Below, one piece after another: positions 3,264-30,355 of a stretch of 64,000 nucleotides of DNA (its first letter is position 1; every line of letters begins with the position of its first letter). Origin of the DNA: an uncultured virus (IMG/VR IMGVR_UViG_3300042294_002635). Its lineage: Duplodnaviria > Heunggongvirae > Uroviricota > Caudoviricetes. The translations under genes were made by a program, and so were the position numbers. Where the stretch lies: the IMG/VR virus record IMGVR_UViG_3300042294_002635. One strand, given 5' to 3'. A model generated the notes under the pieces. That model did no database searches, was not told the DNA's origin, and worked only from the letters and a program-made list of their open reading frames with translations.

Positions 3264-3519
3264 ATCGCATAGCGAGTGGGAGATGTACTCTCAGGTTATA
3301 GAGTTTTCTTCCCTGAGAGAGTTGTACGACAGTGTCGTACAGATTGAAAGGGGGCAGGGAGTGTCGGACACTATTTCCTGGGAGGAGTTTAAGGGGCAAT
3401 TTCAGCACATACTCCAGAACACCCCCACGGAGTACAGACACTTAGATGTGAGTGTGTCTAATGCGGGGAAAGTTATTGAGTCTTACGGAGGAAGTCGCAA
3501 GGAAATTAACTTGAGCCAG

Positions 3520-3584
3520 GGCGGTTAACACTCGTCTTGGGGGCGGTTTCCGCCCTTTCCTTCGCTCAGTGAAACCGCTATAGT
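3520..3584 (+). promoter_or_regulatory. Conserved early-promoter-like element
   Basis: GGCGGTTAAC, GGCGGTTT 22 bp later, TTTCCT-17-TATAGT. Confidence 0.75.
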
Positions 3585-3625
3585 AACTGTGTGACAAACA
3601 CACTAGCTCAGTTAGCCCTAAAGTA

Positions 3626-3991
3626 ATGTGGAAGTTCAACGATCCCTTAAGTCAGTTGCGCTCTTTTCGTGACAGTTTGCTAAGGGACGACCAACACACC
3701 TACGCCACAAGGCTCGGTGAAATCGTAGAGTCCCTCGAAGAGTGGTATGAAGATGCCAGGGAGTCGAACGAAGAGGTAGAGGGCTTTGAGGAGTTAAGCA
3801 AAGTGTTCAGAGAGGCAAACTCAATCTACGAGTCTAAGCTCTCGGACGAAGCCAAGTATGACCTTATTTTCTCCAAGAAGATATCGCAAAAAGTCCCCTT
3901 CTCGTGGTACGACCCTGACACATCTTACGAAGAGGACGTAAGGTACTTTATGAACGCCTTTCGAGAATACATGGGTGGTTCTCCGCGATAG
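3626..3991 (+). CDS. Hypothetical protein
   Basis: 121 aa ORF directly downstream of a promoter element. Confidence 0.65.
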   Translation: MWKFNDPLSQLRSFRDSLLRDDQHTYATRLGEIVESLEEWYEDARESNEEVEGFEELSKVFREANSIYESKLSDEAKYDLIFSKKISQKVPFSWYDPDTSYEEDVRYFMNAFREYMGGSPR

Positions 3992-4122
3992 GTGCCGTGC
4001 GGGGGGGGGGTCTCTGCTTGAGTCCGTTTACCCCTAGCACTCCCAACCTATGATACGGATGTGGAGCTCAAAGTTCCACTCCTCGCCCCCTTAACCTCCA
4101 CCCAGCAAAGCGGTGCGAAAAC

Positions 4123-4244
4123 CGAAGAGTAGCCAAGTGGTTAGGCAGCGGTAATGCAAAAAGATTACCTAGCTTAGGTAATTCAGCAACTACCCAATAC
4201 GCAAAAGGAACCGCCATACGCAAGTTCGAATCTTGCCTCTTCGA
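4123..4244 (+). tRNA. tRNA-like RNA (possibly Cys-derived) with a 57-nt expanded anticodon loop carrying a hairpin + CAGCAA module
   Basis: Acceptor CGAAGAG/CTCTTCG, D arm GCC-AAGTGGTTA-GGC, anticodon stem GCGGT/ACCGC, T arm GCAAG-TTCGAAT-CTTGC; 4153-4209 lies between the anticodon-stem strands. Confidence 0.8.
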
Positions 4245-4262
4245 CTTTGCCTTCGGCAAACA

Positions 4263-4314
4263 TAGATAGTTCAGCGATCAAAACCTTTCTTTGCAACAGA
4301 AAACCAACTATCTA
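4263..4314 (+). ncRNA. Free-standing stem + CAGCGA + anticodon-stem-loop (GCA) RNA module
   Basis: 9-bp outer stem TAGATAGTT/AACTATCTA enclosing CAGCGA and TTTCT-TTGCAAC-AGAAA (5-bp stem, 7-nt loop). Confidence 0.65.
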
Positions 4315-4709
4315 GCTAAACCCAAACTTTATCCTCATAATGATAGTAAAAGACCTTTATTCTCGATCCAAGTAATTTGCCAAGCAAACTTAGATAGAAC
4401 AAAAGATATGACACCCACTGAAGCAGGTTTTGACGGGGAAAGGGGCATACGACTAGGAATGACGTACATGCAAGACGGCGGACTGTACCGGCTGCTACGG
4501 AGTAAAACCCCACCCACAAACTCCCAAAAGAAGTTGTTAAAGAACATGCTGATCTGGTATTACCCCGACGACAGCGACTCTAAGCTCTTGTTCTGTAACT
4601 CGGAAGGTGAGTTGTTTAACCTGACCTTTGAACCAACTAGCATAGAGCCGTAGCTCAAGGGCTAAGAAAAACTTTCAATATCGCTCCAGGTAGTTTTCGG
4701 AGCAAACAC

Positions 4710-4821
4710 GGGACCGTAGCTCAACTGGTAGAGCACGAAAAGTTATCTTGACAAAGATACATCAGCAATTAAATTACCTCTTTTAAAGGCGCGGTTGCAG
4801 GTTCGAGTCCTGCCGGTCCCA
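4710..4821 (+). tRNA. tRNA-Lys(TTT) body with a 39-nt insertion in the 5' strand of the anticodon stem
   Basis: Acceptor GGGACCG/CGGTCCC, canonical D and T arms; removing 4738-4776 restores CGCCT-CTTTTAA-AGGCG. Confidence 0.85.
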
Positions 4822-4835
4822 TTCCCATTTTTGCT

Positions 4836-5378
4836 ATGACTAACAGCAAGACCTCATTTCTCCTAACTCAAAACCACCTGAAACTGCTGAGAAGAATGCA
4901 CGTTGGGTGGAGCAACTGTGAATTCGGTGCTCCGGAAATAGACCCGAAAAGACCGTATGGCAACAGTTGGGTTATCGGAGACATACACGAAATTCTGACT
5001 GGAGAAGACCTAGAAGAATTGACCGAGTCACAGGAAGAGGAGTACAGGCAGCTCCACGAACAAACTCAAACAGCCCTCCAAATCATTCTCTCTACGGGGA
5101 AGTTTGAGGAAGGTTTGTACATGCTTACTGAACCGTATTCTTCTACTTGGGTGCGGAAAGCCATGATCAATTCCATGGCCTACAAAGACTACACAGCCAG
5201 TATGGTCTTCGATACTGAAGACATGATTATTGTTGGTCGTGTCCTAGACATCGACGACATTATCTCGTTTCACGGCGAAACGATAGCTGAATTTGAATCC
5301 AACTTTCATGCAGCCATCGAAGACTATCTAGCCGCATCGCAGGAACTTGGTTCTTCGCCGGAAAAGCCCGCAAGTTAA
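4836..5378 (+). CDS. Fusion of a phage hypothetical domain and a truncated HicB antitoxin
   Basis: From 5163: MAYKDYTASMVFD...IIVGRVLDIDDIISFHGETIAEFESNFHAAIEDYL...PEKPAS; stops where the HicB RHH domain would begin. Confidence 0.8.
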   Translation: MTNSKTSFLLTQNHLKLLRRMHVGWSNCEFGAPEIDPKRPYGNSWVIGDIHEILTGEDLEELTESQEEEYRQLHEQTQTALQIILSTGKFEEGLYMLTEPYSSTWVRKAMINSMAYKDYTASMVFDTEDMIIVGRVLDIDDIISFHGETIAEFESNFHAAIEDYLAASQELGSSPEKPAS

Positions 5379-5394
5379 GGTACTTAGGAGGTCT

Positions 5395-5432
5395 AAGGCT
5401 CGGTTTCAGGTTCGAGTCCCGCCAGTTCCATT
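5395..5432 (+). repeat. Degenerate copy of the 3' end of tRNA-Lys (4786-4823)
   Basis: 33/38 nt identical by manual alignment. Confidence 0.8.
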
Positions 5433-5444
5433 TTCACACGAACA

Positions 5445-5642
5445 ATGAACAGAGTTTCAATTGCGATCTTAGCGCTTTGCACCGCTTTATCTGGCAACGA
5501 GGCATTGTGCAAGACCCAAGTAGTGATTACAGGTAGGAACGCAGAAGAAGTACAAAGAAATGCGTTCAGGACCAAAATGAGCTACCCGCTCAGGCCTCTA
5601 AAGTGTAGTCAACGGTGCTCCCAATTGTGGGAAAGAGATTGA
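5445..5642 (+). CDS. Small protein with predicted signal peptide
   Basis: 65 aa, hydrophobic N-terminus. Confidence 0.5.
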   Translation: MNRVSIAILALCTALSGNEALCKTQVVITGRNAEEVQRNAFRTKMSYPLRPLKCSQRCSQLWERD

Positions 5643-5675
5643 GTGTGATGTGGGGACTCTCAGCCCTAAAGAAAG

Positions 5676-5719
5676 GGCGGTCTCCCGCCTTGCCTTTCCC
5701 CCATGAAAGGCGGTATGAT
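5676..5719 (+). promoter_or_regulatory. Conserved early-promoter-like element
   Basis: GGCGGTCT, TTGCCT-18-TATGAT. Confidence 0.7.
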
Positions 5720-5740
5720 TATAGCGTGTAAACGATTCAA

Positions 5741-5992
5741 ATGACAAACCTTTCCCGGTCCGCTCAGGCGGTTCTGAACACTGTCTTAAATGAAGCGGAG
5801 CCTCGATCCGCGCAGTTACAAGCGATAGCAGATGCCGCTGCCGTTCTCTGAGTCGCTGCGAATCAAGTGGTGACACCCGACCTCTGCGGCAACGACTGCT
5901 GCATCACCCAATGCGAGCAGATCCGTGCCGAACTCTTCGCCATCACCACCGAACTAGAAGGGCGGTTACCCGCCTTGCCTTGCCTTTTCTAG
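5741..5992 (+). pseudogene. Interrupted member of the LSPxAQAV...ELxAIATELE small-protein family
   Basis: MTNLSRSAQAVLN...AAAVL*VAANQVV...IRAELFAITTELEG; in-frame TGA at 5849-5851; paralogs at 39231 and 40568. Confidence 0.65.
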
Positions 5993-6056
5993 GAAAAGCT
6001 AGCCATAGGGCACCGGGCCCAAGGGTCCCGCTCCTAAGATCTCACCACGGGGAATG

Positions 6057-6100
6057 GGCGGTTTCCCGCCCCCTCTCCCTTGCCGTGAACACGCTAAAGT
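6057..6100 (+). promoter_or_regulatory. Conserved early-promoter-like element (a degenerate copy also at about 5961-6009)
   Basis: GGCGGTTTCCCGCC ... CGC-TAAAGT. Confidence 0.6.
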
Positions 6101-7016
6101 TAATCAGCTCACCTTCCACCGTCAACCATCCAATGAAATACCGCATTCGACACGAAGTATGAAACCCGAAAACCCGTACGTTCGCGCTGTAGTTGGCCTT
6201 GTGTTCTTTACTGCGGCACTCGGACTAGTAATTCAAGTGGTGGCGGCAATTGACGTGGCCATCCGTAGAGCCGATGAGCATGCCTCCAAGACTGAGAGAG
6301 AAGAAGAGAAAGTCCTAGCTGAAAAGTGCAAGTTACTGAGCAATTCGGCTCGTGCCTCCGTGTACATAACCCAAGAGCCCTTGAGCCTCTACATTTGCAG
6401 CGACCAGGGTGTCTCAACTTACTTTGTGACACGTAGGCTGTTCCCCCAGGTTTGCTCAGTTGGGCAAAGCCCCGCACCTTATACCCGCACGACTCTTTCC
6501 AAACAAACTACCCCCTTGAACGAAACAATGACCACAACACTGCGGGACCACCCACTGTCTGGCGGGCTTCGCGCAGGTTATGGGAGGGATAGGTGCTTTT
6601 GCTCTCTCACCTAAAGAAGCGGGAGAGGTGCTTCTCGGATCGAATGCAGCAGACCACTTCTTCGACACTGACAAACAAGCACTTGTTTTCCTGGAACAAG
6701 TTATTGAACGTAATTCCCATTCAGTACCCCCCACTGAGTAGTATGAAAATCACGTATAACGCACCGTCGAAAGTTGAACGCACCGTCGAACTTAACGAGT
6801 CCGATTTCCCGCCCCTTTATGGCGCGATCCGAGACTGTTTCCTGCAGAGACTTAAATCTTTCGGCTTGTCCAACCCGTTCTTCCCCTTTGAGTACGAAGC
6901 GATCGAGTTCTGTCGCACGGCGGGAGTTGATACGACTAATCGCATAGACGTGGTCGAATTCTTTGAGACGCTTCTTTTGAGGGGAACCACCGAAGCTTCA
7001 GACAATCAGGAGGGGA

Positions 7017-7460
7017 ATGAAAACGGCAATCACTAGCTTAAGGGTGGCCGAGAAGGTTTCGGTGAAGTCAGGGGACTTTCCCAACATCCCCTATCTAATT
7101 GTCAACCTAACCTGGAAAATCTCACCTGACGACTTTTACTTTCAGGCGTTCCTTGACGATACGAAAGATATCGTGCAGCAGATAAGTGTTGTAGACCCCG
7201 ATACGTGGAACGACCCGTGCTCGCTACACGAAACGAACTTTGAAAAAGTTTGGATTCCGCACGGGGATAGGTGGAGGTACATTCCAAAGTTCAACACTTT
7301 CTGGTACAAGGATTACGTTTCAGACTGCCCGGTTGTTAGGGCCACCTTAAAAGAGCTCGAACACTTTCAGCAGAGGGAAGAGTTTTCGTCGGAGTACCGG
7401 TTTTTCGATGAGAGTATTTTGTACAAGCATCTCTCGGTCTTGTGCACCTTTACGGACTGA
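7017..7460 (+). CDS. Hypothetical protein
   Basis: 147 aa ORF, ATG start. Confidence 0.55.
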   Translation: MKTAITSLRVAEKVSVKSGDFPNIPYLIVNLTWKISPDDFYFQAFLDDTKDIVQQISVVDPDTWNDPCSLHETNFEKVWIPHGDRWRYIPKFNTFWYKDYVSDCPVVRATLKELEHFQQREEFSSEYRFFDESILYKHLSVLCTFTD

Positions 7461-7798
7461 TCCGGGTAAATTACACTATACAGACCTTTCGCAGAGCAAC
7501 GTTGGAACAAACGAATAAAGAGCCAGAGTGTTGCCGCAGAAGTTTCGGCGCATCCTTGATTGACACAGCTAAACGAATGCTGGAAGATCCGTCGTTTGCC
7601 CCTCGCCAAGTGGCGAAGGACCGACTCTCAATTTGTGAGAGCAATGTGTGCGGATCCTTTGAAGAAAAAAGTTCAACCTGTGACGAGTGCGGGTGTTTTC
7701 TACCCGCTAAGACAACAATGGCAAACATGCGATGCCCGCGAGACTACTGGGTTGAGTGGGTGAGAGGGGAGTCCAATGACGCAGGAGAGGGGGCTTAA
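7442..7798 (+). CDS. Cys-rich small protein (DUF6171-like); true start probably downstream
   Basis: RLSICESNVC...CDECGCFLPAKT...CP..W. Confidence 0.65.
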   Translation: MHLYGLIRVNYTIQTFRRATLEQTNKEPECCRRSFGASLIDTAKRMLEDPSFAPRQVAKDRLSICESNVCGSFEEKSSTCDECGCFLPAKTTMANMRCPRDYWVEWVRGESNDAGEGA

Positions 7799-7859
7799 GT
7801 CAAGGGTGCCTTGCAGATAAGGTTTACTCCCCCTGTGGGACGCTATTCTAGTTATGAAA

Positions 7860-7931
7860 GCCCTGGTAGCTCAGTGGAAGAGCACTGTCCTTCTAAGACA
7901 CCGGTCGTGGGTTCGAATCCCTCTCAGGGCG
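7860..7931 (+). tRNA. tRNA-Arg(TCT)
   Basis: Acceptor GCCCTGG/TCAGGGC, loop CT-TCT-AA, T loop TTCGAAT; no encoded CCA. Confidence 0.9.
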
Positions 7932-7972
7932 TCGGTTGCCTTTGCAGCCAAACTAAACAACAACAATAAAAA

Positions 7973-8137
7973 ATGGCAAATCTTTCTATAGTTGATCGTG
8001 CCGCACGAATTAGCAGCAAAAGCCCCAGGGGAGCAAAGCTCCTTCTGAAGCTCAGCGAGGCAAGCACCGGCACTGAAGTTCAAAGTGCCCTTGACGAATT
8101 TGACCTGGCATTCGGAGTTCAAACTCCCTCTGTCTGA
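7973..8137 (+). CDS. Small hypothetical protein (54 aa)
   Basis: Manual translation MANLSIVDRAAR...EVQSALDEFDL; A-rich leader. Confidence 0.6.
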   Translation: MANLSIVDRAARISSKSPRGAKLLLKLSEASTGTEVQSALDEFDLAFGVQTPSV

Positions 8138-8179
8138 GCTTTACCTTGGGTTCCACCCCACACGGTGGTTCCCTTTCCT

Positions 8180-8268
8180 GGGCGTGTGGTGTACGGTGCA
8201 CAGGGACCCTTATACAGTCCTCTCCGGCAGATTACCGGCTAGTTAGGGTTCGACTCCCTACACGCCTA
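8180..8268 (+). tRNA. tRNA with TAT anticodon (Ile, AUA reader) and long variable arm
   Basis: Acceptor GGGCGTG/CACGCCT, loop CT-TAT-AC, variable arm CCGG-CAGATTA-CCGG, T arm TAGGG-TTCGACT-CCCTA. Confidence 0.8.
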
Positions 8269-8358
8269 CTTAGTTTCAAGTCCTCGAAAACTCGTTAAAG
8301 ATCCCACACAAAGGCCATCTTCGGTGAACGGCACAGGAGTGGCCCACCACGGTGACAA

Positions 8359-8418
8359 GGAAGAGTGGCTGAGCGGTTGAAAGCAGCAGCTTCGAACAAT
8401 GTAGAGGGTTAAACCTCC
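8359..8418 (+). pseudogene. Truncated 5' copy of tRNA-Ser(CGA)
   Basis: 56/60 nt identical to 9268-9327; lacks T arm and 3' acceptor strand. Confidence 0.85.
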
Positions 8419-8457
8419 AGGGTAAAGTAAGGGTAACTCATCACCCCCACCTAAGTC

Positions 8458-9321
8458 GTGAAAATAGAAGCCGTTATTGTTTGCGTAAACTACTCAGACT
8501 TTTTGGCGCATACCTTACCCAGCACCAGAAATCAGTTTGACAAACTTGTAGTTGTTACCGATAGTAAAGATAAAGATACTAAAAAACTGTGCGAATACTA
8601 CAACGTGGAATGTGTTCAGACAGATGTGTTCTATGACGGCGGTGACGCATTCAATAAGGGCAAAGGAATAAATGCGGGGTTAGAAAAGCTAAGCCAGGAC
8701 GGATGGGTTCTGCACCTGGACTCAGACATTTATTTGCCACCTCAAACACGGTCAACTTTGGAAAATTTACCTTTAATCGAAGACAAAATCTATGGGGCCG
8801 ACCGTCTAATGTGCCCTGGCTACGAAGAGTGGTTGAGATTCTTAGATAAACCCTCCCCCATCCAAGACTCTTGGATTTTTATCCACCCGACAAGATTCCC
8901 GGTCGGGGTTAGAGTTGCAGAGTACAAAACTTGGCACGGTGGCTATGAGCCTATTGGGTATTTCCAGCTATGGAATCCTAAGGGGTCAGGAATTTCGCGA
9001 TACCCTGACAAGCATGGGTTTGCGGACCGTACTGATGTAATGCACTGTAAAGAGTGGCCTCGAGAAAAAAGAGAATTGTTGCCTGAAATCCTTGTCATAC
9101 ACTTAGAAAGCGAGGCCGGAATCGGCCTAAATTGGAAAGGTAGAAAGACCCCTATGTTTGGGCCCAAGCTTCCCCTGCCTGTCTTATCTTGGCCAGACAA
9201 ACTGTTTCTGTTTTTGAACAAATTAAGTAAGTGCGGTTACAAACCTAACCGTAAATACCAAAGAAGTGGAAGAGTGGCTGAGCGGCCGAAAGCAGCAGCT
9301 TCGAAAACTGTAGAGGGTTAA
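8458..9321 (+). CDS. GT-A fold (family 2-like) glycosyltransferase
   Basis: VIVCVNYSDFL, FNKGKGINAGL, WVLHLDSDI (DxD), GYFQL; 3' end runs into tRNA-Ser. Confidence 0.8.
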   Translation: MKIEAVIVCVNYSDFLAHTLPSTRNQFDKLVVVTDSKDKDTKKLCEYYNVECVQTDVFYDGGDAFNKGKGINAGLEKLSQDGWVLHLDSDIYLPPQTRSTLENLPLIEDKIYGADRLMCPGYEEWLRFLDKPSPIQDSWIFIHPTRFPVGVRVAEYKTWHGGYEPIGYFQLWNPKGSGISRYPDKHGFADRTDVMHCKEWPREKRELLPEILVIHLESEAGIGLNWKGRKTPMFGPKLPLPVLSWPDKLFLFLNKLSKCGYKPNRKYQRSGRVAERPKAAASKTVEG

Positions 9322-9352
9322 ACCTCCGGGGGTTCAAATCCCCCCTCTTCCG
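9268..9352 (+). tRNA. tRNA-Ser(CGA)
   Basis: Acceptor GGAAGAG/CTCTTCC, G discriminator, loop TT-CGA-AA, long variable arm. Confidence 0.9.
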
Positions 9353-9419
9353 TTTACGGTTTCCCCTTTGAACACTCGAAGGTTCAACGGCGCTAAAGAA
9401 ACCGTTATACACATGCAAA

Positions 9420-9737
9420 ATGACAATTAAAGACAAACCAGAATTCGTGAATGAAGTGATTTCACGAGTGATTAACAACGCACCAATAAGCGAAGTTCTC
9501 CGCGTATACTCTCTCTCCGTGAAAGCGGCAATTGACGAGCTTGACGACGACGGCTTCTTTCAGGCCGTGCTTAACGCGGGGTACACTGACCTAATTGAAA
9601 AGTACGCTGACTTAGACGACCTTGACGAATTTGTTGAGGGTTTCTCGGGTAGTGGGGGAAGTGTGGTCTACGAGAACACAGGAAGGTCGGAAGTTCAAAG
9701 TGCTCTTGACGAGCTTAACCTTGACGTTGGTCTTTGA
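9420..9737 (+). CDS. Hypothetical acidic protein
   Basis: 105 aa ORF; C-terminal EVQSALDE shared with ORF 7973. Confidence 0.6.
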   Translation: MTIKDKPEFVNEVISRVINNAPISEVLRVYSLSVKAAIDELDDDGFFQAVLNAGYTDLIEKYADLDDLDEFVEGFSGSGGSVVYENTGRSEVQSALDELNLDVGL

Positions 9738-9830
9738 CGAACCGACGTTCGCACTAGCGACACTGGATACTAGGGCCAAAGGAAGAAGAGTCTCTGATCC
9801 TACAGGATACACTTAAGATCAGGTGAAAAG

Positions 9831-9874
9831 GGACGGTTTCCACCCTTGCCTTCCCGGATCAAAGGGGCTATAAT
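9831..9874 (+). promoter_or_regulatory. Conserved early-promoter-like element
   Basis: GGACGGTTT, TTGCCT-17-TATAAT. Confidence 0.8.
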
Positions 9875-9904
9875 GGGTGTGTAAGCGAGCTTAGTTCTCC
9901 AAGT

Positions 9905-10453
9905 ATGAAGCGTGCCATCAAAATTGACGGCAAGGTTACCGTCCCTAATTTCACTATTGAAAAACTCCTGCGGTCGGTGTCAGAAGATGCGGCGGGCACA
10001 CGTAGGTCCGACCCACGGTTGTGGACTCTGGGGGATGTTGGATCTAGGTCAGTTCCAGACTGGCTTCGCTCCACTTTGCAAGAGGCACTTTTGCTTCTAA
10101 ATCGTGCAGAACAGCAATACAGGTTTCCATCCCCGACTGACAATATGCGCCGCGAGGGCGCCACGGTTGTGTACGGGAAAGGGTCCGTAGGTTCGCACGA
10201 AGACTACCAGATGTCAGGTTTGTCTCTCCTGGTTTTTCTCGGGGGGCACACCCCTGACGACGAAGCTCCCTACTGCAGCCAGCTCATATCTGAAGGCGAA
10301 TTTTACGCTGGCGGAAAAATGACATTTATGAGGCCAGGGGACGCGCTAGTTTTTGACGATAGGGAAACGCACTCTTGGATGGCCAACGGCTGCTGGTTCT
10401 TTCTCGTTAGCCCCCTCAACAAGATTGAATATGCCAAAGCTTCTCCCGCTTAA
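9905..10453 (+). CDS. Putative 2OG-Fe(II) oxygenase / double-stranded beta-helix protein
   Basis: HxD (HED), GEF, PGDALVFD, distal His (THSW). Confidence 0.5.
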   Translation: MKRAIKIDGKVTVPNFTIEKLLRSVSEDAAGTRRSDPRLWTLGDVGSRSVPDWLRSTLQEALLLLNRAEQQYRFPSPTDNMRREGATVVYGKGSVGSHEDYQMSGLSLLVFLGGHTPDDEAPYCSQLISEGEFYAGGKMTFMRPGDALVFDDRETHSWMANGCWFFLVSPLNKIEYAKASPA

Positions 10454-10655
10454 TTCCTTCGTCGAACAAGTTGCACAACATTCCTTTAACAACTGGGATG
10501 GTGGCGGAGACGGCAAAATTGGGGACTTATTTTGGCCTGCGATTATCTACGGATTACCCGAAGTTGACTTGGAAAAGAAGGTTAGAACAAGGTTTCAGAC
10601 TATAAAGGCGGAGTATAGTGAAAGACTCTTCTTCAATCAGCCTACTCAGTAGCAA

Positions 10656-20701: not shown

Positions 20702-22189
20702 ATGACATTTGTGACAGAAAACTTAACGAAGAGTTCTAAAGCTGCTTCGAACGGAAATGAAAAATGCAACGATAACTGTTCTGTGAGTGAAGCCGTTGTC
20801 TGTGATTTACGCTCTCGCCCGGAACCTCGTCGAATTGACCTCGACAAACTATACGAGTGCGACCCGAAAGACTACATTGGCTATTTCGCCGACGAAACCT
20901 CTTACGACAACCTTATTCAAGAAGACTGCGACGTTTATGTGGGCGGAGTGAAAGTTGTTGCCTTTCGTAAGGCACTTTTTCCGAAGCTGCGCGATGGTTC
21001 GAAAGGTAGCCCGGAAACTTGGAAATACTTCCGCTGGGCAGCAAGAGACTTGTACTCAGACCAACGAGGCCTAGTTGCTGGTAGAGAACTAACTACCCAA
21101 CTCGAAATAAGGGTAACCAACGGTATTCTAAACTTCTTCAAGAAGGCGATGGCCGGTCAAGTCACTGACGTGGAAGAGGCACTGAAAATTGCTTCTCTCT
21201 CCCCCGACATGTCAAAGCTCACTGTCCGAGTGAATGATGTTAAAAAGGACTTCCCAGAAATTGAGAAAGCTTTAGAATCTATCGAGAAGGAACTTCGCAA
21301 GAAAACGCTGAGCGAAGAGAGAAAGGTAGAGCTGAAGGAAGCGAAGGGTAGGGAACTTGCGAAGTGGTTCCCGACTTGGCTGTCTGAGACTTGGAGTGCA
21401 TCTACGGATAAGGTTTCTGAGGCGAAACGTGCCGACGACAGGTATGTGGGAAAACAATACCGTTCAAACAAGTGCTATTCCAACGTGATTGGTGCTTTTG
21501 ATAGGGGTGCACGTAACCCTTACGGTCGCCTAACTGCAACTACCGTTCGAGATTACGAAGGGTTCGTCAGTCACACTGATATTTATCAGACCGCGTGCTC
21601 TGCGCTCAAAGAGACCTTAAACACTCCGGAAAACCCTAGGTGGGACCTCCTTCACGAACGGTTCAGTAACGTGAAAGACCCGCACTATAACCTCTTCGGT
21701 ACGGTGTTCACTGCCCTTACGTTAAACTGGAACTTCCGCTGTGCGATGCACTATGATGGAAATAACTGTGAAGGGGGTATCGCCGTTCTTACCGCAATTA
21801 CCCAAGGTGACTATGACGGTCACTACCTTGTGTTCCCTGAAATTCGTTGCGCTTTCGACCTTCGTGATGGGGACTTTATTGCCGGTGACAATCAGGGACT
21901 GATTCACGGTAACACTGCAATGATTCCGAAGACGCCGGACGCTGAACGAGTTTCGTTCGTTTTCTATTCACGAGAGCGCATGACCGCTCTTGACGATATG
22001 GAGTGTGAGGAGTGCCGCCGAGATTTCATGCGATACGCAGCAGACAATCACAAGGAGTATGGAAAGGGTCACAAGACCTGGAATGGTGTTTGGAGCGGAA
22101 TGTGGAAATCACCGGAATGGATGTCGTATAAAGCCAAACACGGCATGGAACGTTGCTCAAACACCAACTACTGGGGCACCGAGAATTAA
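20702..22189 (+). CDS. TET/JBP-family 2OG-Fe(II) dioxygenase, copy 1
   Basis: TVFTALTLNWNFRCAMHYDGNN (HxD), LVFPE, IHGNT, ERVSFVFYSRE, Trp-rich tail WNGVWSGMWKSPEW. Confidence 0.85.
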   Translation: MTFVTENLTKSSKAASNGNEKCNDNCSVSEAVVCDLRSRPEPRRIDLDKLYECDPKDYIGYFADETSYDNLIQEDCDVYVGGVKVVAFRKALFPKLRDGSKGSPETWKYFRWAARDLYSDQRGLVAGRELTTQLEIRVTNGILNFFKKAMAGQVTDVEEALKIASLSPDMSKLTVRVNDVKKDFPEIEKALESIEKELRKKTLSEERKVELKEAKGRELAKWFPTWLSETWSASTDKVSEAKRADDRYVGKQYRSNKCYSNVIGAFDRGARNPYGRLTATTVRDYEGFVSHTDIYQTACSALKETLNTPENPRWDLLHERFSNVKDPHYNLFGTVFTALTLNWNFRCAMHYDGNNCEGGIAVLTAITQGDYDGHYLVFPEIRCAFDLRDGDFIAGDNQGLIHGNTAMIPKTPDAERVSFVFYSRERMTALDDMECEECRRDFMRYAADNHKEYGKGHKTWNGVWSGMWKSPEWMSYKAKHGMERCSNTNYWGTEN

Positions 22190-22241
22190 CCCTGAAGCCG
22201 CCAAAGCGGCAGTTAATGAACGAAACACAGAATTACTAACA

Positions 22242-22706
22242 ATGGACACAAACAAACAGCTTAACGGTGGCTACGCGGAGCGGCAAGTTGCCTCGGGGAT
22301 TAATGACCCCCGTGAATCAACAACCCCCCTTACAGACGAACAAATGTTCGGTCGCACTCGAACAAACTCTGCGGGAATAACCTACTCCCCAAGAGACATT
22401 GCCGAGGAGCGGCAAGTTGCCTCAGGGATTAGTGACCCCCGTGAAGCAACAACCGCCATTACAGTGGAACTCCCTGTAAACTTCGCTGAGGCTTTTCGAG
22501 CACTTGCTGAACAAGAGGAGTTGTCGGAGAGTAACCTTATTGTACGATCGCTCGGGCTCTACTCCGTTGCATCTCAAGCCGAGAGTGAAGGGTACGGACT
22601 AACGTTCACTCGCATCGAAGGAACCAATGACCTGACCGCCAAGGAAGCAATTCGCATCGAAGATGAGCCCGCGTCTAACTTGATTCTTCCTGGAAATAGG
22701 CAATGA
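22242..22706 (+). CDS. Mosaic protein with internal repeat and possible ribbon-helix-helix domain
   Basis: ERQVASGI.DPRE twice; ITVELP...FRALAEQEELSESNLIVRSL. Confidence 0.55.
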   Translation: MDTNKQLNGGYAERQVASGINDPRESTTPLTDEQMFGRTRTNSAGITYSPRDIAEERQVASGISDPREATTAITVELPVNFAEAFRALAEQEELSESNLIVRSLGLYSVASQAESEGYGLTFTRIEGTNDLTAKEAIRIEDEPASNLILPGNRQ

Positions 22707-24190
22707 TCCGAGAGGTAATATCAAAAGAGTTACAGTCAAGGGTCGAACCCTTACAGATTGATAGGGGTGCTCTTGAATACTGCCCTCGCAGTGAATATAT
22801 TGGACAATTCCCTAAGGCGACAGACTATGACCGCGTAATCGATGAAGACTGTGATGTTTACGTCTCAGGTGTAAAAGTCTTGTCCTTCCGGAAAGCTCTT
22901 TTCCCACTTCTTTCCGAGGGTTCTTCCAAACAGAAGGAGACTTGGGACTTTTTCCGAGCAGCTTCAAAAGAAGTTTACGGCACCCAAAGAGGTGTCGTTG
23001 CGGGCACAGAGTTTACAACTCGCCCCGAATCACGCTTAACTAAAGGACAGGTTGCCTTTTTCGCTGGTGCTTCCGTGGGCTTGATCACAACGCTCGCTCA
23101 AGCGCGAGAAGCCCTAGAAAGTTCGGATGAGCTCACCAGCAAGACTCTGAAAATCAAATACGTGAAGAAAGACTACCCCGAACTTGCGGAGAAAATGAAA
23201 CCGTTAGAGGCGGAAATTCGCACACTGAACTCCGAAGACCCGAAACTAGAAAGTCTGAGAAACCAGAGAAGAGAACCGCTTTGGGGTTGGTTCGAATCTT
23301 GGTTACTAGAAGTTTGGCTGCCCTCAGAAAACAAAGTCGAAGAAGTTAAAAAAGTTCTAAACACTTACATAAGTTCCCAGTTGAACTTTAACCACTGCTA
23401 CAGTAACGTCCTTGGGGCAATTGACCGTGGGGCTAGATTCCCCTACGGTCGTTTAAGCGGAACCACTCAGAGATACTATGAGCAGTTCTCAAAATACAAA
23501 GACATTTATTTCACAGCCTGCGAAGGTTTCAGGTACAATTTTCCGGAGACTTGGGTCAAAGTCAAGGAAGTGATTTCGAGGGCTAAAGACCCTAACTACA
23601 ACTTGTTCGGCACTGCCTTTACGAGTGTAACCGTAAATTTCAATTTCAAGACTGCCTACCACGTTGACAAGAACAATTTGAAAGGGAGTATGGCCGTCTT
23701 AACTGCTTTTACAAAAGGTGTTTATGAAGGTCACTACTTAGTGTTTCCCGAAGTGAGATTGGCCTTCAATTTAAGAGACGGGGACTTCATCGTAGGGGAT
23801 ACTCAAACTTTGCTCCATGGTAACAGCCCCATGACAAAACTTACTGAAGATGCTGAGCGGGTTTCTCTGGTTTTCTACTCACGAGAGAACATGACCCGAT
23901 TGGACGATCTTGAGTGCGAAGAATGCCGAAAACAGTTCATGAAGTTTTCACTTCAGTCTCTGAAAGAACGGGGCAAAGATCATAAAGATTGGAGAGGTGG
24001 TTGGCAAGGTATGTGGACTTCTCAAGAATGGCTAGACTTTAGAAAAGAAAGAAACTTGGAACACTGTTCAAACTCTAATTGGCAGCTTTCCTCGCCGTAC
24101 GAGAACGACGTTACGAAAGAGGTGAAGTTGTTCAAGGATGATCCAGGCGAAGGGTGGAAACTCGTACAAGTGTTTACACAAGATCGGTAA
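22703..24190 (+). CDS. TET/JBP-family 2OG-Fe(II) dioxygenase, copy 2
   Basis: [22 protein letters not shown] (HxD), [16 protein letters not shown]; collinear with copy 1. Confidence 0.85.
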
Positions 24191-24246
24191 ACCGCCCTGA
24201 AGCCTTCGGCTTCCCCCTTGTTTCTGCTTCGCATAAATGCTATGAT
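24185..24246 (+). promoter_or_regulatory. Conserved early-promoter-like element (variant)
   Basis: CGGTAAACC, TTGTTT-17-TATGAT. Confidence 0.65.
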
Positions 24247-24252
24247 TGTTTT

Positions 24253-24843
24253 ATGGAAATCTACTTCAGCACAGACGTTGAGACCGACGGACCGATCCCC
24301 GGACCTAACAGCATGCTTTCGCTCGGGTCGGCTGCGTTCTCACCCGATGGGATACTCCTAAGCACCTTCTCGGTGAACCTGGAGACCCTACCCGGAGCCG
24401 AGCCGGACCCCACTACCCAAGCGTGGTGGGAGGCCCACCCAAAGGCTTACAGAGCCTCTCGGGAGCATACCTGGAGCCCGGACCAAGCCATGTTGCTCTT
24501 CTCGGGTTGGGTTGACCAGACCGTGAAAGCTAACAGTAACCAAGGTTCAGGTGGTCGGAAAGCCTTGCCCGTATTCGTGGGTTTTCCTGCAGGGTTTGAC
24601 TTTCTTTTCGTGTATTGGTACCTCATTCGATTCACCGGGAAGTCCCCATTTAGCTTCTCGGCTCTTGACGGTAAGACCTATGCTATGGCCTTGCTCAAAA
24701 GAGGATACCGGGAGTCCACCAAACGGAACTACCCAAAGGAGTGGTTTCCACTCGAAAACAAGCACACTCACATCGCTGTGGATGATGCCATCGAGCAAGG
24801 TCGTATTTTCTGCAATATGCTTCGATCCAATCTTAATGACTGA
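24253..24843 (+). CDS. DEDDh 3'-5' exonuclease (Rv2179c / RNase AS-like)
   Basis: [28 protein letters not shown]. Confidence 0.85.
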
Positions 24844-25024
24844 CGAAGTTAAAGATTACTGCGAAAAACTTAGCTTGTCCCTAAAGTTAAGGGGAGAGGG
24901 AAACGAGGACGCGGAGGAGGCCTTGCTCTACGAGCTTGACCTTCTGTGGCTTAAGTTGTCGAGAGAAGAGACCCAGTGGGTTAATGCCAATATACTGTCG
25001 TTGTTACCTAACTAACTGCCCACC

Positions 25025-25789
25025 GTGATGAAAAATCCTACTTTCCTACTCCAGTCCGGAGGACCACTACAAATCGAAAAGGTTGCGTGTAGTTTCTCCT
25101 GTTACCCTGTTCGATATTGCTCGTTTGATGATCTGTCGAAGTTAGACCCTAAAGGTTTCATGGCTACATTGATTCCTGTGGGTTCGGTGGAATTTGTTCA
25201 AGCTTACAGTGAACACGCAGGTGTTGTGCTACCTGAAGACTTTTCCTATGGGCACGGGGGGGAGCTGGAAAAGTACCTTATGAGGCCGGTTCGACAGGGA
25301 GTGTACGGCGAAGCAACCCCAGAAGACTTTGTGAAGCCAACCGCAATAAAGTTGTTTACCGGTGGAATCAAAGGGGACCTCGAACTGAAGTCACCTGGAC
25401 TAATTTCCGATAACACTTCTGTGTGGATCTCTCAGGCCGTGCCCTTTGAGTCGGAATTTCGGTTCTACATTCACGACTTCATTGGGGGTGGTAAAATTCA
25501 GGGGTGGTCGCGGTACGATGACAAGCCCGTAAGAAACCCCGAACCCGACTTCGGCCTGATTGAAGAGATTATGGGTGTGCTAGAGGCAAATATTGCGCCT
25601 GGTGCTTACACGATTGACATCGGGTGGAGGCCTGACCTGAATCGGTACTGCCTAGTTGAACTTAACGATGCGTGGTCACTGGGATTTTACGAAAATAGTG
25701 ACCCGCAATCGAACCCACCAACTCGACAGCAGTACGCTGACATGCTGGTGTCTCGCTGGAGACAAATTATCTTTTGCAACCTAGTGTAA
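25025..25789 (+). CDS. ATP-grasp protein (R2K / DUF4343-like)
   Basis: PVGSVEFV, FVKP..IKLFTG, SEFRFYI, YTIDIG, LVELNDAWSLGFY. Confidence 0.8.
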   Translation: MMKNPTFLLQSGGPLQIEKVACSFSCYPVRYCSFDDLSKLDPKGFMATLIPVGSVEFVQAYSEHAGVVLPEDFSYGHGGELEKYLMRPVRQGVYGEATPEDFVKPTAIKLFTGGIKGDLELKSPGLISDNTSVWISQAVPFESEFRFYIHDFIGGGKIQGWSRYDDKPVRNPEPDFGLIEEIMGVLEANIAPGAYTIDIGWRPDLNRYCLVELNDAWSLGFYENSDPQSNPPTRQQYADMLVSRWRQIIFCNLV

Positions 25790-25877
25790 CCACTGGATAA
25801 CACAGTCGGAGATAAGAGGACGCGGCAAACGTCTACTCTTGACGCTCCAACAACAGTCACATCAACTGAACTCAAAT

Positions 25878-26705
25878 ATGGACTATCAGATTGCCATCCC
25901 AACTTACGGACGGCCCGAGGGAGTGAAGAAACTCACTCTAAATTACCTTGAAAAAACAGACATTAATTGTTCCCACGTGACTTTGTTCGTGGCAAACGAT
26001 GAAGAGAAGGAAGTTTATCAGAGTTCAAACCCCACCTACAATATCGTTGTTGGTGAAAAGGGTTTGACAAGACAACGTCACTTCATCTCTAACTTTTACG
26101 ACAAAGGGACTCCTATTTTTTCGTTCGACGACGACGTTAGCGCCGTTGAGGAACTTGAGCTTCTGGAGAATCTCGAGGGAACTCAGAAGCCACTCGACCA
26201 CCCGTGTCGCCTGAAAACCGTGGTGGAGCTATCAGAGCTTATTGATCGAGGATTCCGAATGTGCAAGCGGCGCGATATTGGCCTGTTCGGTTTCTATGCC
26301 GTTCGCAACAAGGGTTTTCTTCACCCAAAGGTGACTGTGGGGCTCAAGTTCATTATGGGCCACGCATTTGGTTTCTACGCAGGCGACCCAGCCTTTGAGC
26401 TAATCACTGAGTACAGTATGAAGGACGACTACTTCTTGTCTCTGTACCACACTGTTAACGGAAACGGGACACTGCGATTCGACAACATTTGTGTGAAAGC
26501 TAAACAGCACACAGGGGGTGGCGGAACCTGTGAAGACCTGGAGCGAAAGCTTCAGATCAATAATCAAACCGTAGAGAAACTTTGTGCCGAGTTTCCTGAC
26601 CTCGCGAGTCCAAAGAGCCGTCGAACAAAGGATGAGTGGCTTTCCCGGTACTCTGAAATCCGCCTCAAAACCATAACAAACGAGACAATCTCAGTGTTTA
26701 ACTGA
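25878..26705 (+). CDS. TET-associated / GREB1-like GT-A glycosyltransferase
   Basis: YQIAIPTYGRP, LFVAN..E...Y, GL..QR.FI, FDDD, KDDY, GGG. Confidence 0.8.
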   Translation: MDYQIAIPTYGRPEGVKKLTLNYLEKTDINCSHVTLFVANDEEKEVYQSSNPTYNIVVGEKGLTRQRHFISNFYDKGTPIFSFDDDVSAVEELELLENLEGTQKPLDHPCRLKTVVELSELIDRGFRMCKRRDIGLFGFYAVRNKGFLHPKVTVGLKFIMGHAFGFYAGDPAFELITEYSMKDDYFLSLYHTVNGNGTLRFDNICVKAKQHTGGGGTCEDLERKLQINNQTVEKLCAEFPDLASPKSRRTKDEWLSRYSEIRLKTITNETISVFN

Positions 26706-26711
26706 GCACCA

Positions 26712-26755
26712 AGGCGGTTTTCCGCCCTTTACTGTATGATCCTCCTCCCTATGTT
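26712..26755 (+). promoter_or_regulatory. Conserved promoter-like element (weak copy)
   Basis: GGCGGTTTTCCGCCC-TTTACT ... TATGTT. Confidence 0.5.
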
Positions 26756-26776
26756 TAGAACAGCTTCCGGCTACCA

Positions 26777-27133
26777 ATGATCCCCGACCCGAAGAAAACC
26801 ATCGTTTTCGACGTTGACGACACCATCCTCACAACAGAAAACCGCGATTACGAAAACTCTCTACCGAAGAGGGAAGTAATTGCAGGTATGCGAGCAATGA
26901 AGGATGCAGGGTGGACGATCGTCTTGAATACCGCGAGGGGAATGGGTCGTTCATACGGTGACATCGAAAGAGTGAGACAAGAAGTTATCGAGGAAATCGA
27001 AAAGTTCTGCACTAAATTCGATGTACCCTACGATACCATTTTGGTTGGAAAACCTTGGGCGGCATACTACGTAGACGACAAAGCACTGACCCCCGCTCAA
27101 TTCTCCGCAAAATACAAGGAAATCGCACAATGA
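26777..27133 (+). CDS. HAD phosphatase (capsule-biosynthesis type)
   Basis: FDVDDTI, TARGM, GKP, YVDDKA. Confidence 0.85.
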   Translation: MIPDPKKTIVFDVDDTILTTENRDYENSLPKREVIAGMRAMKDAGWTIVLNTARGMGRSYGDIERVRQEVIEEIEKFCTKFDVPYDTILVGKPWAAYYVDDKALTPAQFSAKYKEIAQ

Positions 27134-27843
27134 AGAACGCACTAATTCTTGCTGCCGGTCGTAGTACTCGGTTTGGCCGAAACAAACTTGAGGAAAAGTT
27201 TGACGGGATGTCACTTCCTTACCTGGCTGCCAAGTTCGCTCTTGAAAACGGTGCGGAAAACATCTATCTGACGCTCTCGCGCTCGGCGATTAAGACCGAC
27301 GGGACACGCATCTACCATCCTGTTCTAGATGAAGTTTCCAAGATTTGCGACCCGATTGTTCGTTTCCAGAGTGAGGAAACTTACGGACCAGGCGCTGCGA
27401 TTACCACGTGGGCAGGCGTGATCAATGGTCCGTTCACTGTTCTGTTTGGGGATAATTACTACCACGGGACGATTCCTTATGACGAACGAGTTTTACTCGG
27501 CTCAGACCTTAAGGACTCAGTAAGGTTTACGTATCTTAACAAGTCACTCAATCCGCGAAATCTTCAGCTCGCAATAGTGATAGACAACTACGTGATTGAA
27601 AAACCACACGGACGTCTCGAAGGCCGTTACTTCTGTGGTTTTGCCCGTTTCCCTGCTGGATACCTTAACACCATTGGTGACCTTCGTAAGAGTGATCGGG
27701 GAGAAGTTGAAATCACGGATATGATAAACATGGCGCAGTGTCGTGAAGCAGTCTCACTTTCTTCCATAGGAGTTACGTGGGGCGACCTAACTTACGAGGC
27801 GGATTGCGCTCGCATTCGGGAGCTTGTTAGTGAAGGGAAGTAG
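27130..27843 (+). CDS. Sugar-phosphate nucleotidyltransferase
   Basis: ALILAAGRSTRFG..K, LFGDN, EKP, SDRGEVEITD. Confidence 0.85.
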   Translation: MKNALILAAGRSTRFGRNKLEEKFDGMSLPYLAAKFALENGAENIYLTLSRSAIKTDGTRIYHPVLDEVSKICDPIVRFQSEETYGPGAAITTWAGVINGPFTVLFGDNYYHGTIPYDERVLLGSDLKDSVRFTYLNKSLNPRNLQLAIVIDNYVIEKPHGRLEGRYFCGFARFPAGYLNTIGDLRKSDRGEVEITDMINMAQCREAVSLSSIGVTWGDLTYEADCARIRELVSEGK

Positions 27844-28576
27844 TGGGGCCACCCTGGATTTCTCTGGGGATTTCATACGGAAAAAGTGTAAGGATGCCGG
27901 TGAGCAGTGCGAGTGGTTTCGCATTGCTTCTCGGTATACCTTGGCGCCGAGCGTTCGCTTCCCGCAAACAATCAGTGTGTCGGACTCAGAGTACGACATT
28001 GAGTTTATTGAAGGTGTTTGTGGGACACAAGTTGAATCTACACGTTTGATCGACACTTTGGTAGACCAGGTCTCCCTTTGGTCTAAGATCCCGGCGTCAA
28101 GACACGCGGACTGGGAATCTTACAAAGAGCGTCTTCGCTCAGAACACGTTTCTCTGGCAGACAGCGAGATAGTTTGTCGAACTTTCGATTTCCTCGACGA
28201 AATAGAACCACTACCTTCCTCCTTCTCTCACGGTGACCTAACTCTTGAAAACATCATTGTAGAAAATAACGGGGGAATAGTTCTGATCGACCCTAATTTC
28301 AAGAAGAATTTGTTTCAGTCTTACGTTCTCGACTTGGGCAAACTGCTTCAGTCTGTCCACAGCGACTACCACCGGTTGTTTAACTCACACCCAGGGGGTG
28401 ACCCTGCGCCTCTGTGTGCCCACTTGAGGCAACGGCTAGGCGAACCCGTATGGACCCAGGCGCTGGCAGCTGAGATATCGCACGTGGTCCGCCTGCGTAA
28501 GTACCGCCCTTCCGCCCAGTGGTTGACGGTTGACCGGCTGTTGGAGAAGCTGCTGGCTGAGGCCCAAGGATGTTAA
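27824..28576 (+). CDS. APH / choline-kinase-like phosphotransferase
   Basis: KGSSGA, HGDLTLENI, LIDPN, DLGKLLQS. Confidence 0.8.
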   Translation: MLVKGSSGATLDFSGDFIRKKCKDAGEQCEWFRIASRYTLAPSVRFPQTISVSDSEYDIEFIEGVCGTQVESTRLIDTLVDQVSLWSKIPASRHADWESYKERLRSEHVSLADSEIVCRTFDFLDEIEPLPSSFSHGDLTLENIIVENNGGIVLIDPNFKKNLFQSYVLDLGKLLQSVHSDYHRLFNSHPGGDPAPLCAHLRQRLGEPVWTQALAAEISHVVRLRKYRPSAQWLTVDRLLEKLLAEAQGC

Positions 28577-29722: not shown

Positions 29723-30355
29723 ATGGAATCCCACACCAATTACCCCAGGACTTTTCATCTCCCTTGGTCAGAAGCTGTAACGTCTGACGACAAGGTTGTT
29801 CCGTCCGTCGTTCATTTTGAGGGCAACCTCGTGGTTGTGACGGAAAAGATGGACGGTGAGAATACAACGATGTACCGAGACTATGTTCACGCCAGGAGCC
29901 TGGACAGCAAAGGTGGTGAAGACCGCGCATGGGTGAAGCAATTCTGGGCTTCGATCCGTAGTGAAATCCCTGAAGGGTGGCGAATCTGTGGTGAAAACCT
30001 CTGGGCGAAACATTCTGTTTCTTACTCCAACTTGCACTCATACTTTTACGGGTTTAGCATTTTTGACGAGCACAACCGGGCATTGTCATGGGAGGACACT
30101 GAAGACTACTTTGAAATGTTAGGGGTCACCCCTGTTCCCGTTCTTTACTCTGGACTCTGGGACGAGACCGTGGCCCTTAATCTGGCAAAGGGCCTGGACA
30201 CCAACACGACAGAAGGCTATGTAGTTCGCCTTGCTGATTCCTTTCACTACGATAACTTTAGCACTTCTGTTGCTAAGTTTGTCCGTAAAGGTCACGTTCA
30301 AACTGACAAGCACTGGAGGACGCAGCAGCTTGTACCTAACTCTTTAGTAACCTAA
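29723..30355 (+). CDS. RNA ligase (ATP-dependent nucleotidyltransferase domain)
   Basis: YPRTFHLPWS, motif I EKMDGEN, ICGENL, EGYVVR, AKFVR. Confidence 0.88.
   Translation: MESHTNYPRTFHLPWSEAVTSDDKVVPSVVHFEGNLVVVTEKMDGENTTMYRDYVHARSLDSKGGEDRAWVKQFWASIRSEIPEGWRICGENLWAKHSVSYSNLHSYFYGFSIFDEHNRALSWEDTEDYFEMLGVTPVPVLYSGLWDETVALNLAKGLDTNTTEGYVVRLADSFHYDNFSTSVAKFVRKGHVQTDKHWRTQQLVPNSLVT

Follow-up and report, generated by a model that had tools for sequence, protein, structure and literature searches.

The stretch of DNA analysed here (the window; 64,000 nucleotides) belongs to an uncultured Caudoviricetes virus. It carries a gene for a Ro60-like protein (1423–2901) and, downstream of it, two interrupted tRNA-like genes, t1 (4123–4244) and t2 (4710–4821), with a free-standing stem–loop between them (4263–4314); all of these features and their parts lie on the plus strand. 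The t2 gene has the shape of a tRNA-Lys(UUU) gene with a 39-nt module (4738–4776) set within its anticodon stem, an assignment that rests on the Rfam tRNA model, a deletion test and compensatory changes. Its 5′ part, GGGACCGTAGCTCAACTGGTAGAGCACG (4710–4737), is followed by the insert, which reads AAAAG-T-TATCTT-GACA-AAGATA-CAT-CAGCAA-TTAAATTA and consists of an A-rich linker (4738–4743), the hairpin TATCTT-GACA-AAGATA (4744–4759), the trinucleotide CAT (4760–4762), the invariant CAGCAA (4763–4768) and an A/U linker (4769–4776). The rest of the anticodon arm, CCT-CTTTTAA-AGGCG (4777–4791), precedes the V loop, T arm and acceptor strand, which extend to 4821. With the Rfam tRNA model (RF00005), t2 scores 48.5 bits (gathering threshold 29, E-value 2.6e-7), 52 nt standing in place of 13 model positions; the acceptor, D and T arms are covered by the alignment in both t2 and t1, and tRNA matches are the only ones that Rfam returns for the two genes.

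The intact t2 gene was missed by ARAGORN. As encoded, it lacks an uninterrupted 5-bp anticodon stem and a 7-nt loop with U33 and a purine at position 37; these are reached only after removal of 4738–4776. When all single deletions leaving a 17-nt anticodon arm were enumerated, the deletion of 4738–4776, between stem positions 28 and 29, was the only one to give five Watson–Crick pairs (CGCCT/AGGCG) with the loop CTTTTAA. ARAGORN, proposed as a check by an earlier sequence-only reading of the locus, recognised the insert-deleted sequence as a 73-nt tRNA-Lys(ttt). The hairpin TATCTT/AAGATA is present in the minimum-free-energy fold of the 112-nt t2 RNA (z = −3.3; 0 of 200 shuffles were as stable). 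The sequence-only reading had described a tRNA-Lys(UUU) with a 39-nt insert containing this hairpin, and the interruption is confirmed as described, by the sequence, the Rfam score and the unique deletion that restores the anticodon arm.

Group I and group II introns, which the same reading had set aside on account of size, have catalytic cores (P3–P9, or domains I–VI) of about 200 nt or more and are ruled out for an insert of 39 nt, and no ribozyme or intron family in Rfam matched the window between 3500 and 10500 at E ≤ 1. A bulge–helix–bulge has two 3-nt bulges, which contain the splice sites, with a 4-bp helix between them. Its absence, also claimed earlier, holds on inspection of the sequence: both mirror arrangements were drawn by hand at 4737/4738 and 4776/4777 and neither fits, the 4 nt beside either junction having no complementary partner where a bulge–helix–bulge requires one. 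Two other features of the module were considered and rejected. A pairing of the insert AAAAG with the loop CUUUU is possible in the window and was dropped because it is not retained in relatives. A promoter-like TTGACA-16-TAAATT lies at 4748–4775, inside the module; relatives have TTGTCA or TTGTAC, and such promoter-like sites occur in numbers at the level of chance.

The t1 gene, a second interrupted tRNA-like gene (Rfam tRNA, 44.7 bits), keeps an intact 5-bp anticodon stem (GCGGT/ACCGC); 57 nt replace the loop and hold the same module, with its hairpin at 4164–4182 and CAGCAA at 4184–4189. No single deletion in a scan of t1 gives U33 or a canonical anticodon loop. The module common to the two genes comprises an A-rich linker, a hairpin with an AAGAUA-like 3′ strand, 1–3 nt, CAGCAA and an A/U-rich linker. 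Immediately after t1 lies a UUCG-loop hairpin, CTTTGCC-TTCG-GCAAA (4245–4260; 6-bp stem in the fold), which is kept after t1 in the related locus L020 and may be a processing or termination signal. It is followed by the free-standing Y-like element, a 52-nt stem–loop (4263–4314) with a 9-bp stem in the minimum-free-energy fold (z = −2.5). Its closing stem is TAGATAGTT/AACTATCTA, and CAGCGA (4272–4277) comes right after the 5′ strand; the strand that precedes CAGCGA pairs 28 nt downstream, not upstream as in t1 and t2. Homologues of this element follow t1 in the related loci L014, L016, L019 and L020.

A further copy is located in the 5′ leader of the Ro60-like gene (1373–1416; AAGTTGA ... CAGCTT ... 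TCAACTT), ending 6 nt upstream of the start codon at 1423. Its position is homologous to that of clear copies of the element in the leaders of Synechococcus phage B3 (AAGTTGATA-CAGCAT...ATCAACTTG) and of the related locus L033. As the stem was not recovered in the minimum-free-energy fold, this copy is regarded as a probable degenerate homologue. The sequence-only reading had missed t1, the occurrence of CAGCAA outside tRNA genes and the Ro60-like gene 1.8 kb upstream.

A conserved single-stranded motif beside a helix might also be part of a very small self-cleaving or self-splicing ribozyme, and small ribozymes are common in phage genomes. Such a ribozyme is extremely improbable here: besides the Rfam result given above for 3500–10500, known self-splicing cores are larger than an insert of 39 nt with its single hairpin, and copies in leaders and spacers have no exons. 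The sole Pistol match, in L033, has an E-value of 3.6 and lies on the other strand, inside the protein gene of that locus.

The Ro60-like protein and neighbouring features

The protein encoded at 1423–2901 matches only DUF2828 and DUF7788 among Pfam families at E ≤ 0.001 and belongs to PHROG 850 ('RNA-binding protein'). Pfam TROVE gave no match at this threshold. A PDB search with the protein sequence returned no matches, and a search with its profile returned five weak ones, none of them to Ro60. An AlphaFold model built from an 18-sequence alignment is of middling quality (pLDDT 69.9, pTM 0.58). It comprises helical repeats at about residues 50–300, followed by an alpha/beta domain at 305–486, in agreement with the architecture of Ro60/TROVE proteins, where a HEAT-repeat ring precedes a vWA domain. 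The top 12 Foldseek matches are all Ro60/TROVE entries (E-values 1e-6 to 3e-3), with the Ro60 of Thermus phage phiLo (PDB 9KOP and 9L5Y) among the best, and the structural alignments to Ro60 cover model residues 38–506, including both domains. Since the PDB sequence searches find no Ro60, the likeness of the modelled protein to Ro60 is one of predicted fold only. Mycobacteriophage homologues are already annotated as 'Ro-like RNA binding protein'. The protein collection contains at least 7,833 homologues of DUF2828, and 702 records of cultured phages have the family, among them Felix O1-like, Listeria, Staphylococcus, Vibrio and Campylobacter phages and mycobacteriophages.

Several other features of this part of the window involve tRNA-like sequences. 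The ORF at 4836–5378, directly downstream of t2, encodes a C-terminal HicB-like antitoxin domain (PHROG 9151, E-value 3e-21). A degenerate tRNA-like 3′ half at 5340–5430, with an imperfect T arm (TCAGG-TTCGAGT-CCCGC) and an acceptor-like end, resembles the 3′ end of t2; it has no Rfam match and is also found about 685 nt downstream of t2 in relatives. At 8180–8269, there is a 90-nt class-II-like tRNA-shaped gene, called tRNA-Ile(tat) by ARAGORN and matched in Rfam by tRNA-Sec only (23.7 bits, E-value 0.32); its D arm is odd, its anticodon loop apparently has 9 nt and its variable arm is long, and the gene is 87–100% conserved in 15 related loci. The first 62 nt or so of tRNA-Ser(CGA) are duplicated, a partial copy (8363–8425) and a complete gene (9267–9353) lying on the two sides of a family-2 glycosyltransferase ORF (8458–9321; Pfam Glycos_transf_2). 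Most relatives (e.g., L006–L010) have one intact tRNA-Ser where the window has the partial copy; it looks as though a gene cassette inserted into the tRNA-Ser gene and regenerated it. A run of about 10 G (3985–3997) comes directly after the stop codon of the ORF at 3626–3991, and the RNA contigs of all four metatranscriptome runs lack 6 letters near 4001.

Elsewhere in the window, a DNA-hypermodification cluster (20702–28576) contains two tandem Tet/JBP dioxygenase paralogues and a TET-associated glycosyltransferase, together with R2K ATP-grasp, nucleotidyltransferase-like and kinase-like proteins. A family A DNA polymerase (50998–53928) has an exonuclease domain of the mitochondrial, pol gamma type (Pfam DNApol_Exo, E-value 6e-61). 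The protein encoded at 41749–42855 belongs to DUF1517, a family characteristic of cyanobacteria and plastids; its presence would be in keeping with a cyanophage.

Conservation of the module and its association with DUF2828 genes

Eighteen related IMG/VR loci were fetched with the protein at 1360–2901. Both t1 and t2 are present with their inserts in all 16 loci L005–L020 (81–100% identity) and the two loci with a protein of 44% identity lack both genes. Exact-match patterns, which miss diverged copies, found no insert-less t2: in IMG/VR, there were 0 sequences with a 24–34-nt gap versus 12 with a 58–88-nt gap, and in JGI metagenome contigs, 0 with a 0–30-nt gap versus 6 with a 31–60-nt gap. 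With the insert in all 16 loci and no insert-less copies matched, it is therefore not the one-off pseudogene that the sequence-only reading had named as the case against its proposal. The nearest record, G001, was uninformative, its t1 and t2 being identical to those of the window, and a nucleotide search of cultured phages with window positions 3900–9500 gave only short tRNA-sized matches.

Among the t2 orthologues, 99.5% of the cells of the drawn structure are paired. Compensatory changes affect two pairs of the acceptor stem and one of the T stem, and pair 28–42, as read from the alignment, is G–C in two sequences and U–A in six. All 8 distinct t2 orthologues have the same module hairpin and CAGCA, and the flanking linkers vary from 5 to 9 nt and from 7 to 10 nt. 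In t1, 5 of the 8 hairpin pairs have changed on both sides, with 98.9% of cells paired. The element and the tRNA body are also kept across phages whose DUF2828 proteins are merely 42–44% identical (L077, L099). Relatives possess further interrupted tRNA-like genes of 112–128 nt, directly downstream of the same protein gene. The locus L018 (11520–12500) has an array of some seven small RNA genes in the 1 kb that follows the Ro60-like gene; four are tRNA-like genes that contain the module, and these alternate with three permuted Y-like RNAs. These Y-like RNAs have a closing stem AAGATGAG...CTCATCTT around G-CAGCAAC, a mini-hairpin, a T arm and a capped acceptor-like hairpin, and their fold is well supported (z = −3.3).

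A second scan covered 80 loci (618,554 bp) around DUF2828 homologues of 39–100% identity, partly overlapping the 18 loci. The element was defined as CAGC[AG]A preceded within 0–4 nt by a 7–8-nt helix strand whose partner lies 3–12 nt upstream or 12–110 nt downstream, with at most one G–U pair. On the gene strand, 324 elements were found, versus 52 on the other strand and 28–35 in five shuffles; since some of the 80 loci are also among the 18 and many are closely related, these counts do not represent independent events. At least one element is present in 78 of the 80 DUF2828 loci. It occupies the leader (−250 to +40 of the start codon) in 51 of 78 loci and lies within 1.5 kb downstream of the gene in 54 of 76; nine elements fall within DUF2828 coding sequence. 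Across 125 distinct copies that stand free, 51 versions of the stem sequence occur, with CAGCAA unchanged.

The element is located beside the gene in four cultured phages, namely Synechococcus phage B3, Salmonella phage Mushroom, mycobacteriophage LeBron and Listeria phage LMTA-94. One tRNA gene of phage B3 (MN695334.1), b3_0347, contains the module; it is labelled 'tRNA-Pseudo-GCA' in GenBank and lies about 400 nt downstream of the Ro60-like gene gp345. In Felix O1-like phages and in LeBron, the element is present in free-standing form only. In LMTA-94 (locus L106), three Y-like elements fill a 400-nt gap upstream of the DUF2828 gene (3600–4000), and an annotated RtcB-type 'tRNA-splicing ligase' is encoded 1.3 kb downstream of that gene (6849–8060).

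The variety of sites at which the element occurs (tRNA stems, intergenic regions and leaders), together with the 'tRNA-Pseudo' label on the phage B3 copy, might suggest a selfish small mobile insertion of the MITE type or a decaying pseudogene, with no function at the RNA level. This explanation is very improbable in view of the strand bias (324 versus 52), the maintenance of helices by compensatory changes, the invariance of CAGCAA while the stems diverge and the conservation of the element with the tRNA body at 42–44% DUF2828 identity; moreover, no target-site duplication was seen on inspection at 4737/4777.

Comparison with Y RNAs and other known systems

According to the available part of the description of YrlA, this RNA has a tRNA-like domain, its ends form a stem, and a GNCGAA motif near the 5′ end probably contacts Ro60 (Chen et al. 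2014, PMC4201824). Thermus phage phiLo has a Ro60 ring that binds the small RNAs Yrl1 and Yrl2, encoded beside its gene; in these Y-like RNAs, as far as the available text describes them, a 5′–3′ stem flanks a bulge with a CGAA motif (PMC12135203). The RNAs of the window share several of these features. They are encoded next to a gene of a Ro60-like protein, as Y RNAs adjoin Ro60-type genes, often in several copies, and t1 and t2 have a tRNA-like body with T and D arms and an acceptor helix, to which a helix and a short purine-rich motif are joined. Unlike YrlA, t1 and t2 end at the acceptor stem as a real tRNA does, and the stem of the 5′ and 3′ ends with GNCGAA or CGAA is replaced by an internal hairpin with CAGCAA. 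The motif of t1, t2 and the free copy is CAGCAA or CAGCGA, not GNCGAA; t2 retains a complete anticodon loop, and the candidate partner is a DUF2828 protein, not a Pfam TROVE protein. The free copy at 4263–4314 has the terminal-stem layout of Y RNAs, with CAGCGA. The phiLo RNAs resemble those of the window in lying beside a phage gene of Ro60 or Ro60-like type and, in the case of the free copy, in the 5′–3′ stem next to the motif; they differ in being described as free-standing, and the available text of that report makes no mention of a handle inside a tRNA gene.

The order of parts in t1 and t2 runs from the D arm through a helix strand, a loop, the second helix strand, CAGCAA and a linker to the T arm and the acceptor. 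YrlA has the same cyclic order, its ends lying in the helix and its acceptor being closed by a loop. Judged from this order, each of the two genes would be a circularly permuted form of a YrlA-like Y RNA. The LeBron element with its T arm matches the YrlA family (RF02553) over the full length at 39.8 bits (E-value 1.5e-7), below the gathering threshold of 69; the YrlA covariance model gave no match at E ≤ 1 in window positions 3500–10500. A 25-bit YrlA match in L033 is not evidence, because it spans two neighbouring genes. None of the DUF2828 phages (LeBron, Felix, Listeria, cyanophage) is named in the five searched supplementary files of PMC4201824. The accessible literature on DUF2828, phage Y RNAs and Ro60, and phage tRNA introns describes no Y-type module inside a phage tRNA gene, and that on DUF2828 describes no RNA partners. 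Ro60 with Y RNAs is a known kind of system; a Y-type module inside a tRNA gene is a new variant of it.

Three other systems bear a partial resemblance to t2. The protein-spliced tRNA introns of archaea and eukaryotes can likewise be short interruptions at a non-canonical place in the anticodon stem, removed by an endonuclease and a ligase; t2 differs from them in having no bulge–helix–bulge, no splicing endonuclease was found, and the module is not confined to tRNA genes. Group I introns interrupt the anticodon arm of bacterial-type tRNA genes in bacteria and phages, and they are about 200 nt or more in size and situated in the loop, whereas the t2 insert, of 39 nt, is placed in the stem and matches no intron family in Rfam. 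In phage T4, PrrC, Pnk and Rnl1 take part in the cleavage and repair of tRNA-Lys. As in the T4 case, a tRNA-Lys(UUU) occurs in the window alongside an RNA ligase of the phage and end-healing enzymes, but no PrrC-type nuclease is at hand; a link between t2 and PrrC is a conjecture. The T4 system of tRNA-Lys cleavage and repair is also mentioned in the available part of PMC13148394.

Protein handle or intron

The sequence-only reading had offered two possibilities for the insert, a small protein-spliced intron or a protein-bound chimera. Its protein-bound part has gained a candidate partner in the DUF2828 protein, the gene of which is flanked by the element in 78 of the 80 loci. The insert is very probably a Y-RNA-type handle of this Ro60-like protein. 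This reading follows from the presence of the same module in t1, t2 and the free-standing stem–loop; from the way the element accompanies DUF2828 genes, with a strand bias; from stems that vary while CAGCAA stays fixed, the t1 hairpin covarying; from the agreement of the protein model with Ro60/TROVE over both domains; from the match of the LeBron copy to YrlA; and from the stem beside GNCGAA or CGAA in known Y RNAs, the free copy having CAGCGA. Against it stand the absence of a Pfam TROVE match and of a PDB Ro60 match by sequence, the pLDDT of 69.9 and the lack of a YrlA match in the searched part of the window.

Whether the handle stays in the RNA is a separate question, on which the related genes give evidence of both kinds. 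Deletions were made around 224 hairpin-type modules and judged by ARAGORN; 72 of them, representing 63 distinct sequences, gave a tRNA after deletion. A strict filter (junction after stem nucleotide 1–4, five pairs, insert of 35–55 nt) was passed by 31 modules, which yield 26 distinct anticodon arms, from many phages, that are canonical after virtual deletion. In these arms, the pieces of the 5′ strand always sum to five pairs, the junction falling after stem nucleotide 1, 2, 3 and 4 in 6, 9, 10 and 1 cases, respectively. G37 accompanies G36 in 6 of 6 loops and is found in 1 of the 20 others, 16 of which have A37. U33 is present in 25 of 26 arms and a purine at 37 in 23 of 26, counts that are biased because the score used for choosing the deletion rewarded both. 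Orthologous bodies bear different sensible anticodons (e.g., TGT, TGG, TCT and GTT on an ACGGC/GCCGT stem). Canonical loops after deletion suggest a decoding role and therefore removal of the module, which argues against an unspliced RNA.

These observations are the main support for a new protein-dependent tRNA intron, where an endonuclease would excise the module and the phage RNA ligase would seal the ends, giving a working tRNA-Lys(UUU). The Ro60-like protein could then be a chaperone, a splice-site marker or a quality-control factor, and the free copies would mark processing sites of the operon. Such an intron is possible but doubtful. In its favour are also the perfect anticodon arm produced in t2 by deletion of 4738–4776 and the absence of insert-less copies in IMG/VR and JGI contigs, as searched with exact-match patterns. 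Enzymes that might take part are encoded in the window. One is an RNA ligase (29723–30355, plus strand; Pfam RNA_ligase, E-value 7e-33), which could seal the ends after an excision of the module; the others are two metallophosphoesterases and a P-loop kinase-like protein. The RtcB 'tRNA-splicing ligase' encoded 1.3 kb from the DUF2828 gene of Listeria phage LMTA-94 points the same way. On the other side, the anticodon loop of t1 is unrecoverable, the distinct t2 orthologues have U33 in 3 of 8 cases and G33 or C33 in 5 of 8, with an 'anticodon' that alternates between TTT and GTT, and 8-nt loops occur in some 't0' relatives. No candidate for the endonuclease was found, and a bulge–helix–bulge is absent. 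The linkers vary in length on both sides (5–9 and 7–10 nt), so that cut sites are not measurable from the module, and the elements in 5′ leaders and between genes have no exons to join. Metatranscriptome contigs of four runs cover t1 and t2 with their inserts and contain no joints, a weak argument, as such contigs cannot show small spliced RNAs, reveal neither ends nor strand and may derive from DNA in the libraries.

The analysis leans towards an unspliced particle in preference to the new protein-dependent intron. That the t2 handle functions without being spliced out is an evenly poised proposition, favoured by the conservation in 16 of 16 loci of t1, which is never canonical, by U33 in only 3 of 8 t2 orthologues and, weakly, by RNA contigs that keep the inserts. 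Taken as a whole, a Y-RNA-type protein handle, and not a classical intron, is on balance the better explanation of the locus. The handle of this preferred explanation would consist of a helix with an AAGAUA-like 3′ strand, 1–3 nt and a single-stranded CAGCAA. In t2, it would branch off between positions 28 and 29, on the 5′ side of the anticodon stem, which could still stack from its segments of 2 bp and 3 bp into a regular anticodon arm of five pairs, with a loop for Lys(UUU). The t1 and t2 RNAs would be produced and end-processed like tRNAs, and the Ro60-like ring would bind the helix and CAGCAA. The resulting particle would present the tRNA body and, in t2, also the lysine anticodon loop to tRNA-recognising proteins, possibly serving as a tether, gate or decoy in a conflict over the cleavage and repair of tRNAs. 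The free-standing copies and the leader copies of relatives may titrate or autoregulate the protein. A more tentative proposal is an as yet unrecognised class of tRNA intervening sequences in DUF2828 phages, where the Ro60-like ring would hold the pre-tRNA while enzymes excise the handle and a ligase seals the ends.

Ro60 and Y RNAs are conserved from bacteria to humans, and the origin and purpose of the tRNA mimicry of tRNA-like Y RNAs are open questions. The genes described here supply a candidate RNA partner and a candidate binding motif, the helix with CAGCAA, for DUF2828 proteins. If the module is removed by protein enzymes, this would be the first protein-dependent tRNA splicing among bacterial viruses, and the genes would form an evolutionary bridge from tRNAs to Y RNAs of the YrlA type; the locus offers a direct test of such splicing by bacterial viruses. 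Complete tRNA genes with a Ro-type handle may represent the unpermuted form of a YrlA-like RNA. They adjoin free-standing handles and copies in the leader of the protein's own gene, and they suggest a plausible evolutionary path from a tRNA to a Y RNA.
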